Source: a phage. From it: DNA of 64,000 nucleotides. A model generated the notes under the pieces. It saw only the letters and a list, made by a program, of their open reading frames with translations. It was not told the DNA's origin and made no database searches. Below, piece by piece: positions 24,755-27,387 of this stretch; position 1 is the first letter of the stretch; each line of letters opens with the position of its first letter. A program made the translations under genes and the position numbers. Location of the stretch: the sequence record PZ452583.1. The stretch is one strand, 5' to 3'.

Positions 24755-24763
24755 ATCACCTTC

Positions 24764-24949
24764 TTAAAGCGTATTCACATAAGCTATTAATTCATTTTCT
24801 TTCTTATCAAACCGATCAGCAAATTCTTCCTGCTGTTCGGGAGATAGCGGGCCGTATTCATCATAAAAGGTGTTTGCTTCTGCATGCTCATCTAGAAGTT
24901 CATGGATAAGCTCAAACAATTTATCTTTTTGTTCTTTGCTTAGGCTCAC
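24764..24949 (-). CDS. Hypothetical acidic protein, 61 aa (GTG start)
   Basis: Only available start is GTG at 24949. Confidence 0.45.
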   Translation of the reverse strand: MSLSKEQKDKLFELIHELLDEHAEANTFYDEYGPLSPEQQEEFADRFDKKENELIAYVNTL

Positions 24950-25118
24950 AGTATGTCAATCCCCAAAAGTTTTAAAATGACTCGTTTCTGATTCATAACC
25001 GCTACGATTGAATGACCGTTGGGGTCTTTTTGACCCGATCCAATTATAAATCCTTTTTGTGCAGAAAGTTCAATCAAAACATCAAGTTCACGTAATAATT
25101 GATATTTTAAATCATCAT

Positions 25119-25331
25119 TCATTTTGGTTTACCTTCTTTAACGAAATCAGGATAAGGATAAAATCCCGAATAAAATCCTTCACCTTTATGATTGATGCAT
25201 CCTTTATTAGAACAATAGCACCAATAATCGAAATCACAAGCCATTTCATCATTACATAAAGCAAAAACAACAGGCCACTTACACTTTTCACAGTGGGCAT
25301 TTTTAAGAATACTAGTTTGGCTCATAACCAT
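25119..25331 (-). CDS. Cys-rich small protein, 70 aa
   Basis: ORF-track start is TTG; first ATG 25331; Cys pairs CEKC...C..CNDEMAC...CYC..KGC. Confidence 0.45.
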   Translation of the reverse strand: MVMSQTSILKNAHCEKCKWPVVFALCNDEMACDFDYWCYCSNKGCINHKGEGFYSGFYPYPDFVKEGKPK

Positions 25332-25534
25332 GTAACCTTTAAGCAATATTCTTCTACATGTTGTTTACGACCTTTCTTATCAATAAAGGTATATTCAACG
25401 AATGTTCCAATGTAGTCTTTATCTACATCATGTGGACTATTAATTGGACATTTAGTACGGCAAATGCGTTCCCATTGACGAATAATTACTGCTTTGTTTT
25501 TAGGATCAAACGGATGCGGGTAATGTACTTTCAT
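25322..25534 (-). CDS. Hypothetical protein, 70 aa
   Basis: ATG verified. Confidence 0.45.
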   Translation of the reverse strand: MKVHYPHPFDPKNKAVIIRQWERICRTKCPINSPHDVDKDYIGTFVEYTFIDKKGRKQHVEEYCLKVTWL

Positions 25535-25985
25535 AATCCACCACTATTAAATCAATATCAGGAGTAAACATGTCGATTAATTTAGAAACCTTATCCCAAT
25601 CGCCGCCAGCAATACCACAACCTATGCGTGGAATGTAAATTACCGGTTTAAACAAAAGGGTTTCTGCCTGTAGATTTAATTCTATCATGCAGTTTACTAA
25701 AGCACCATAATCAAGATTAGGACCTGGTTCGTATTGCGTATACAAGTTATAACATATGCCAAAACCATTAGGTTTATGTTTAAAAACAATAGACATATCG
25801 CCTAATTTATCACGAGAACCGTACTCAGTAGTGGTTTTATCTATTTCTAAAATTTTGGGATAGGCTCTTGCTAATTGACCCGCTACACCTGAACCCATAG
25901 TATGAAAACAATTGCACCCGTGCGCAATAATATTACCTTGAAGAAATAGGGCGACAATATCGCCCTTGATATATTTTACAATCAT
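25506..25985 (-). CDS. Macro-domain-like protein (putative ADP-ribose binding/hydrolase), 159 aa
   Basis: Macro-domain-like elements in translation: N-terminal GDIVAL, glycine-rich MGSGVAGQL, C-terminal IPRIGCGIAGG; assignment by motif pattern only. Confidence 0.6.
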   Translation of the reverse strand: MIVKYIKGDIVALFLQGNIIAHGCNCFHTMGSGVAGQLARAYPKILEIDKTTTEYGSRDKLGDMSIVFKHKPNGFGICYNLYTQYEPGPNLDYGALVNCMIELNLQAETLLFKPVIYIPRIGCGIAGGDWDKVSKLIDMFTPDIDLIVVDYESTLPASV

Positions 25986-26323
25986 CTAGTACTCAATCCT
26001 CGATTATAAGAATCTACCAAACGGTCAACCATTGAATGACAAGCGGCTTTATCTTTCTCCTCCGCAACTGAACATTCTAAGGTATTCCACTTTTTAGCAT
26101 ATCGTTTTAACAGTGTATCATTTTTGTATCTGCTTGATTTATCTCTTTCTCCGTCTTTATATGCATATATTAATTTCTGCGCAAATTCAGCTTGGCATGC
26201 TTTATTTTTCCCGCAATAATCCGCTGCAGTACGGTTTACATACTCTCTAATTTCAGTATATGATGTATCTGCTAACGCAGAAAATGAAATTAATCCTATA
26301 CATAAAACCAAAATTTTAGTCAT
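25982..26323 (-). CDS. Secreted Cys-containing protein, 113 aa
   Basis: N-terminal signal peptide MTKILVLCIGLISFSALA; four Cys in mature part; T4 vs slot by order only. Confidence 0.55.
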   Translation of the reverse strand: MTKILVLCIGLISFSALADTSYTEIREYVNRTAADYCGKNKACQAEFAQKLIYAYKDGERDKSSRYKNDTLLKRYAKKWNTLECSVAEEKDKAACHSMVDRLVDSYNRGLSTR

Positions 26324-27338: not shown

Positions 27339-27377
27339 CCTCTTAACTGATAGAAAAATTATACCACAGTCAAGAGG
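27339..27377 (-). promoter_or_regulatory. regB: Hairpin enclosing the regB early promoter -10; its 3' arm contains the regB SD (AAGAGGAG)
   Basis: Arms CCTCTTGACTG / CAGTTAAGAGG pair at 11 positions including one G-U; loop carries TATAAT. Confidence 0.6.
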
Positions 27378-27387
27378 AAAAGTAAAC
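27358..27387 (-). promoter_or_regulatory. T4-type early promoter for regB (GTTTAC, 18 bp, TATAAT)
   Basis: Read on minus strand 28 bp upstream of regB ATG. Confidence 0.65.

Follow-up and report, generated by a model that had tools for sequence, protein, structure and literature searches.

The minus-strand open reading frame (ORF) at positions 25506-25985 of the 64,000-nt phage DNA analysed here (PZ452583.1; hereafter "the window") is the ortholog of the T4 gene tk.4 (adfM), and its product is a macrodomain of the ALC1-like class. We consider it probable that this protein is a counter-defence enzyme directed at DarTG2, acting as a thymidine-ADP-ribose hydrolase with a glutamine-type active site, a reading that combines published T4 genetics with analogy to the macrodomain SCO6735. 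The gene itself, tk.4/adfM, has been described before. What the analysis adds is an active site of the Gln rather than the DarG type, an allele that departs strongly from that of T4 although its flanks match T4, and the observation that the closest bacterial relatives, among the 80 best loci, are mostly stand-alone macrodomains with no DarT found next to them.

A tk.4 ortholog in a Tequatrovirus genome

The ORF runs from ATG to TGA and encodes 159 amino acids:

25506-25985, minus strand: tk.4/adfM coding sequence, stand-alone macrodomain protein of 159 aa

Alignment of the window protein with T4 Tk.4 was end-to-end (57% identity, E=1e-69), and it was matched by PHROG 335 with E=1.8e-71. Together with the gene order regB-vs.1-vs-ORF-tk.3-tk, which is that of T4, homology and the position between vs and tk.3 identify the ORF as the ortholog of tk.4. 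The surrounding 2.4 kb matched 729 phage records (top match, 99.5% identity), nearly all of them T4-like phages (Tequatrovirus) of Escherichia, Shigella or Yersinia, and the window belongs to Tequatrovirus. More broadly, homologs of some kind were present in 2,774 of 50,697 phage records.

Existing annotations of this gene vary. Shigella phage A2 carries this ORF between thymidine kinase, to one side, and the vs modifier, an SLT-domain protein and RegB, to the other; there it is labelled "macro domain containing protein". The gene at this position in the T4 reference, tk.4, is labelled "phosphatase; contains A1pp phosphatase motif". An A1pp match for tk.4 orthologs already appeared in a comparative paper of 2006 (PMC1524935), and the macro/A1pp assignment of tk.4 dates from the 2000s. 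In the light of the present analysis, the labels "phosphatase" and "hypothetical protein" found in databases need correcting. A preliminary description of this DNA, made from the sequence alone, had rightly proposed a macrodomain and a role in counter-defence, but had not recognized the long-annotated gene tk.4.

Candidate expression signals were located upstream of the ORF on the same strand:

25997-26001, minus strand: Shine-Dalgarno-like GAGGA, 11 nt upstream of the ATG and inside the 3′ end of vs (from the sequence; putative function)
27358-27386, minus strand: σ70 early-promoter-like site upstream of regB (TTTACT, 17 nt, TG-TATAAT; consensus scan)

The latter site precedes the regB start by about 28 nt, agrees with the consensus at 10 of 12 positions, and was the only good same-strand promoter-like site that the scan returned upstream of the regB-vs.1-vs-tk.4 block. 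Promoter-like sites in the region as a whole were fewer than in shuffled sequences, and the regB promoter call amounts to a single good consensus match. From this match, the tight packing of same-strand ORFs and the overlap of the vs stop codon with the tk.4 start codon (ATGA at 25982-25985), we infer co-transcription of tk.4 with regB-vs, in a regB-vs.1-vs-tk.4-tk.3 transcript that probably begins at 27358-27386.

Codons 7-13 of tk.4 also contain a perfect 8-bp GC-rich hairpin (AGGGCGAUAUUGUCGCCCU, 25948-25966), followed by a weak U-rich tail. This hairpin was flagged as terminator-like on both strands, and the equivalent site in phage ECML-123-2 is annotated as 'rho-independent terminator'; the 86-nt fold around it had a z-score of only -1.46.

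Macrodomain fold and active-site anatomy

Every test that we ran classified the protein as a macrodomain. The Pfam Macro profile (PF01661) scored 33.1 bits against a curated gathering threshold of 22 bits (E=6.2e-8), the match spanning 116 of 118 profile positions. By sequence, the protein directly matched the solved structures of BT1257, yeast Poa1p, SCO6735, DarG of Mycobacterium tuberculosis (Mtb) and TARG1, and a family profile built from 83 sequences strengthened these structure matches to E-values from 4e-19 to 2e-10 (HMMER). The alignment of this 83-sequence family, leaving out the T4 sequence row, also served as input for an AlphaFold2 model (mean pLDDT 94.3, pTM 0.89), in which strands and helices alternate in the order expected for a macro fold and assemble into its three-layer α/β/α architecture. 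The first Foldseek match of this model was TARG1/OARD1 (PDB 4J5R; E=2e-10, target TM-score 0.82). The nearest neighbours by sequence and by structure all fell into the ALC1-like class (TARG1/DarG/SCO6735/Poa1p), to which we assign the protein; structurally, none of its subgroups was clearly favoured.

The preliminary description had called the protein macro-domain-like from three motifs, all of which are present (GDIVAL, residues 8-13; MGSGVAGQL, 30-38; IPRIGCGIAGG, 118-128). This reading holds up, as the fold predicted by AlphaFold2 and recognized by Foldseek is that of a macrodomain and the conserved glycine-rich phosphate-binding loop, far from being absent, is represented by two loops kept across the family. 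Both of these ADP-ribose/phosphate-binding loops (MGSGVAGQ, residues 30-37; PRIGCGIAGG, residues 119-128) line up with their counterparts in BT1257, SCO6735, TARG1 and DarG.

For residue-level comparison, PDB sequences taken from the HMMER alignments and the translated gp104 of phage PhiKZ were aligned with family members by MAFFT L-INS-i. This placed four elements in the window:

25908-25922, minus strand: codons for H22-G23-C24-N25-C26 (alignment to PDB sequences; family conservation)
25875-25898, minus strand: glycine-rich loop 1, MGSGVAGQ, residues 30-37, after strand 2 (alignments)
25734-25748, minus strand: codons for N80-L-Y-T-Q84 (HMMER profile alignment to TARG1 and BT1257; MAFFT)
25596-25631, minus strand: phosphate-binding loop 2, PRIGCGIAGGDW, residues 119-130 (alignments)

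H22, G23, N25 and C26 were invariant in 119/119 family sequences covering these positions, and G33, A35 and Q84 in 121/121; G122 and G124 of loop 2 were likewise invariant and align with G126 and G128 of SCO6735. N25 corresponds to N27 of SCO6735, to the DarG asparagine and to N23 of PhiKZ gp104, and G23 to V25 of SCO6735. Q84 aligns with SCO6735 Q85 and the BT1257 glutamine, at a position held by the catalytic lysine in TARG1 (K84), in Taq and Mtb DarG (K80) and in gp104 (FPTK), and A126 replaces D125 of TARG1. For TARG1 and BT1257, the register of the HMMER profile alignment agreed with that of MAFFT. An hhalign comparison of the family profile with gp104 shifted the motif by two residues within a low-confidence stretch; we preferred the HMMER/MAFFT register. 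ALC1, a non-catalytic ADP-ribose binder, also has glutamine at the Q84 position, but aspartate rather than asparagine at that of N25. The mobile loop of the phage family (QYEPGPN) is short, as in TARG1 and DarG; BT1257 and SCO6735 carry an insertion of 5-6 residues, including the DNA-binding Lys89 of SCO6735, that the family lacks.

Published work on SCO6735 gives this residue pattern its meaning. The equivalence of K80 (Taq DarG), K84 (TARG1) and Q85 (SCO6735) has been described, along with a mobile loop that exceeds that of DarG/TARG1 by five residues and is said to be characteristic of the SCO6735 subclass (PMC9411070). SCO6735 takes thymidine-linked, not guanosine-linked, ADP-ribose off single-stranded DNA, acts faster than DarG or TARG1 on the thymidine-linked form and rescues DarT toxicity; its Q85A variant is inactive, little or no activity is left after the Q85A and N27S exchanges, and a water molecule positioned by the V25 backbone is the catalyst proposed by the authors (PMC9411070). 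On these grounds, the T4-type family fits a Gln-type active-site pattern—the glutamine, the asparagine holding it and a conserved glycine—combined with a short loop. Judging by the residue at position 84, T4-type AdfM cannot use the lysine chemistry of DarG/TARG1, which makes N25 and Q84 direct points for mutational tests.

A divergent allele and its bacterial relatives

To locate the differences from T4, DNA identity was calculated in 60-nt windows along a MAFFT pairwise alignment. While tk, tk.3 (25322-25534), vs, vs.1 and regB were 95-100% identical to T4 and the first ~100 nt of tk.4 still 82-98%, identity fell to 38-72% in the gene body between 25534 and about 25900:

25534-25900, minus strand: divergent cassette, tk.4 body with ~40-70% DNA identity to T4 between flanks of 95-100% (sliding window)

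At the protein level, identity to T4 Tk.4 was 88% over residues 1-33 and 38-50% over residues 61-155. The window and T4 alleles share about 55% DNA identity, with synonymous sites saturated. An allele of the window type (≥90% identical) occurred in 313 phage records; the T4-type allele was found at ≥90% identity in 224 further records and at 80-90% in 159. tk.4 is thus a cassette open to exchange within a conserved backbone. Such mosaicism is typical of T-even phages; it is compatible with, yet no proof of, selection by varied DarT2 toxins. Natural T4-like phages carry several very different tk.4 alleles, which could matter for predicting host range on strains bearing DarTG2.

A second replaced cassette adjoins that of tk.4. 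At 24760-25300, the place of tk.1/tk.2 in T4, there was little or no similarity to T4 DNA save for a 68%-identical stretch at 24773-24948, and three small minus-strand ORFs (24764-24949, 24946-25122 and 25119-25346) fill this interval.

A scan of bacterial genomes, with one genome per species, returned at least 507 stretches encoding relatives, and the 80 closest of those listed were kept. These were 33-44% identical, came from many phyla and were mostly encoded by stand-alone ORFs of 140-180 aa. Using Pseudomonas aeruginosa DarT2 (PMC13309987) as the tblastn query, no DarT2 was found within 5 kb of the 80 best loci, where matches stayed at chance level (E≥2.6). Pfam matches of 120 neighbouring ORFs were spread over 117 different families, with no recurrent partner, and the 25 most frequent Pfam families listed from neighbour ORFs included no DarT family. 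Given neither a nearby DarT2 nor a recurrent partner, the tk.4 family does not resemble a DarG antitoxin that was captured recently.

In two Ruegeria genomes and one metagenome-assembled genome of Victivallales, a NADAR-domain gene lies directly upstream of the Tk.4-like macrodomain gene on the same strand:

L022, 4481-5017, same strand: NADAR-macrodomain pair
L031, 4463-4990, same strand: NADAR-macrodomain pair
L006, 4549-4986, same strand: NADAR-macrodomain pair

The NADAR genes of these three loci (E about 1e-37) weakly matched the phage gp30.3/AdfN family. Each pair would couple a guanine-type with a thymine-type ADP-ribose eraser, and no DarT was detected nearby. By analogy, such bacterial pairs echo the pairing of AdfN and AdfM activities in T4.

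Taken together, these observations allow a wider, tentative reading that we regard as possible but hold with little confidence: T4-type AdfM would form a mechanistically distinct Gln-type, short-loop subclass of nucleic-acid ADP-ribose erasers, recruited from widespread stand-alone bacterial macrodomains and exchanged as a cassette in an arms race. If so, no DarG antitoxin would have been its source, its origin would be separate from that of the AdfM of chimalliviruses, which is Lys-type and DarG-like, and exchanging the tk.4 body would alter which DarT2 variants or ADP-ribose-base linkages a phage can neutralize.

Probable counter-defence function and comparison with known systems

The counter-defence idea in the preliminary description agrees with published T4 genetics. 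T4 lacking adfA and adfN stays resistant to DarTG2, from which a further factor was predicted (PMC11825919). In a preprint of November 2025 (bioRxiv 10.1101/2025.11.20.689424), tk.4 was the single significant hit when a T4 transposon library (HIDEN-SEQ) was grown on a DarTG2-expressing host, and its clean deletion rendered T4 sensitive to DarTG2, whereupon the gene was renamed adfM; it was non-essential in T4 except under DarTG2. This support is genetic and covers one preprint, one DarTG2 system and the T4 allele; enzymatic removal of ADP-ribose from DNA was inferred rather than shown by the preprint's authors (10.1101/2025.11.20.689424). A phage macrodomain also named AdfM, PhiKZ gp104, was reported in 2026 to remove DarT2 marks in vitro, with reduced activity upon N23A exchange (PMC13309987). 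Along with AdfA and AdfN, tk.4/adfM forms part of a layered anti-DarTG toolkit of T-even phages.

We envisage the following course of events. Tk.4 would be made together with the products of the neighbouring regB-vs genes and would act on the ADP-ribose that the host toxin DarT2 places on thymidines in single-stranded phage DNA. Conserved sequence and fold suggest that the two glycine-rich loops grip the ADP-ribose diphosphate. By analogy with SCO6735, Q84, held by N25, may position the distal ribose while the G23 backbone positions the attacking water, so that the ribose-thymine bond would be hydrolysed at a site centred on Gln84/Asn25, as T4 genetics and SCO6735 biochemistry suggest. ADP-ribose would then be released and phage replication could continue. 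The window allele, at 57% identity to that of T4, presumably shares activity and mechanism, considering orthology and the invariant residues.

Some features speak against this reading. The family lacks the longer mobile loop with the Lys89 that SCO6735 uses for its activity on DNA, identity between the window and T4 proteins drops to about 45% over residues 61-155, and glutamine at the catalytic position is shared with ALC1, albeit without the asparagine there. Moreover, catalytically dead SCO6735 still inhibits DarT through binding (PMC9411070), and protection therefore need not be purely enzymatic.

The last point leads to an improbable alternative in which protection is non-catalytic, the protein binding DarT2 and blocking it or serving solely as an ADP-ribose binder or sponge. 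ALC1, with the same glutamine, is a pure binder, and the surface-forming C-terminal two thirds of Tk.4 diverge fast between alleles, as expected for an arms-race interface. The catalytically dead variants SCO6735 Q85A, DarG K80A and TARG1 K84A still inhibit DarT by interacting with it, SCO6735 most strongly (PMC9411070). Against this, more than 119 homologs from phages and bacteria all keep the residues that SCO6735 needs for catalysis (N, Q and two G), a conservation that simple binding to DarT would hardly account for, and no DarT was found near the 80 closest bacterial homologs. That same absence of DarT from widespread stand-alone bacterial homologs suggests a broader substrate range, and might mean that the main substrate is another nucleic-acid ADP-ribose mark, e.g. 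one linked to uracil on RNA and set by a defence other than DarTG2. TARG1, DarG and SCO6735 all reverse uracil-ADP-ribose on single-stranded RNA (PMC13036486), and three bacterial homologs adjoin a NADAR gene. We nonetheless judge this unlikely: the literature examined contained no bacterial defence that ADP-ribosylates RNA uracil, and the sole phenotype of the T4 ortholog is against DarTG2.

T4-type phages themselves encode ADP-ribosyltransferases, with Alt, ModA and ModB modifying arginine, and Tk.4 might be a protein de-ADP-ribosylase that resets these marks or reverses a host toxin targeting proteins. Glu/Asp-linked ADP-ribose on proteins is indeed also cleaved by TARG1 and SCO6735 (PMC9411070). 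However, these Glu/Asp-linked forms are the reported protein substrates, the arginine linkage not having been shown to be cleaved by either enzyme; the K84/D125 dyad that TARG1 uses on proteins is replaced by Q84 and A126; SCO6735 favours DNA over protein (PMC9411070); and T4 dispenses with tk.4 unless DarTG2 is present. We regard this explanation as very unlikely, and a regulatory hydrolase for T4's own ADP-ribosylation, the second option in the preliminary description, found no support. Equally remote is an enzyme of small NAD metabolites, be it a Poa1p-like ADP-ribose-1′′-phosphate phosphatase or an O-acetyl-ADP-ribose deacetylase. The database label 'phosphatase' implies such a role, but stems from the domain name and not from an assay; no phage process producing Appr-1′′-p is known in the tk.4 gene neighbourhood, and no phenotype other than the DarTG2-specific one has been reported for the T4 ortholog. 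Of the residues probed in Poa1p (H23, S30 and F152), H23 aligns with the invariant H22, whereas S30 is not conserved, its counterpart at position 29 being Thr and variable in the family; the alignment covers the N-terminal part of Poa1p. Hydrolysis of thymidine-linked ADP-ribose in defence against DarTG2 thus stays our preferred reading.

Among known systems, T4 Tk.4/AdfM (NP_049723) is the closest counterpart, sharing the place between vs and tk.3, the PHROG and all 14 invariant family residues, including H22, N25, Q84, G122 and G124. It measures 155 aa as compared with 159 aa, the C-terminus of the window protein being four residues longer (YESTLPASV vs. WEPLL); loop 2 reads GCGIAGG in the window protein and GAGIGKG in T4, and, owing to this different and longer tail, tk.4 overlaps the start of tk.3 by 29 nt in the window (25506-25534) vs. 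4 nt in T4. Of the Gln-type members of the ALC1-like class, SCO6735 (PDB 5E3B) and BT1257 (PDB 2FG1/2AFC) are about 26-29% identical to the window protein. TARG1/OARD1 resembles it in loop lengths and also removes thymidine-linked ADP-ribose (PMC9411070), yet its catalytic dyad K84/D125 is exchanged for Q84/A126.

DarG (DarG2; PDB 5M31, 5M3I) differs further. It has the catalytic Lys80 in place of Gln84 and a second, DarT-binding domain, and its gene adjoins darT, whereas the window protein is a single macrodomain of 159 aa with vs and tk.3 as neighbours. The NCBIfam DarG model NF048014 scored 27.7 bits against a cut-off of 250 bits, only the N-terminal macro part of its 338 positions being matched. 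This sub-cut-off score, the missing second domain, Gln84 instead of lysine and the lack of a darT neighbour set the protein apart from DarG antitoxins.

PhiKZ gp104 (Cell Rep 2026, PMC13309987) is likewise a stand-alone phage macrodomain countering DarTG2, with a conserved asparagine (N23), but is of the DarG-like Lys type with an FPTK motif, in contrast to the Gln type of T4. Evidence for its role is biochemical, that for T4 Tk.4 genetic. In HMMER searches, gp104 matched Mtb DarG with E=9e-25 and had no match to BT1257, SCO6735 or TARG1 at E≤0.01, and the window-family profile aligned to it only weakly (hhalign 95.7%, 22% identity). Sequence comparison thus places T4 Tk.4 and PhiKZ gp104 in different subgroups of the ALC1-like class, and their shared name, AdfM, invites confusion when annotations are transferred.
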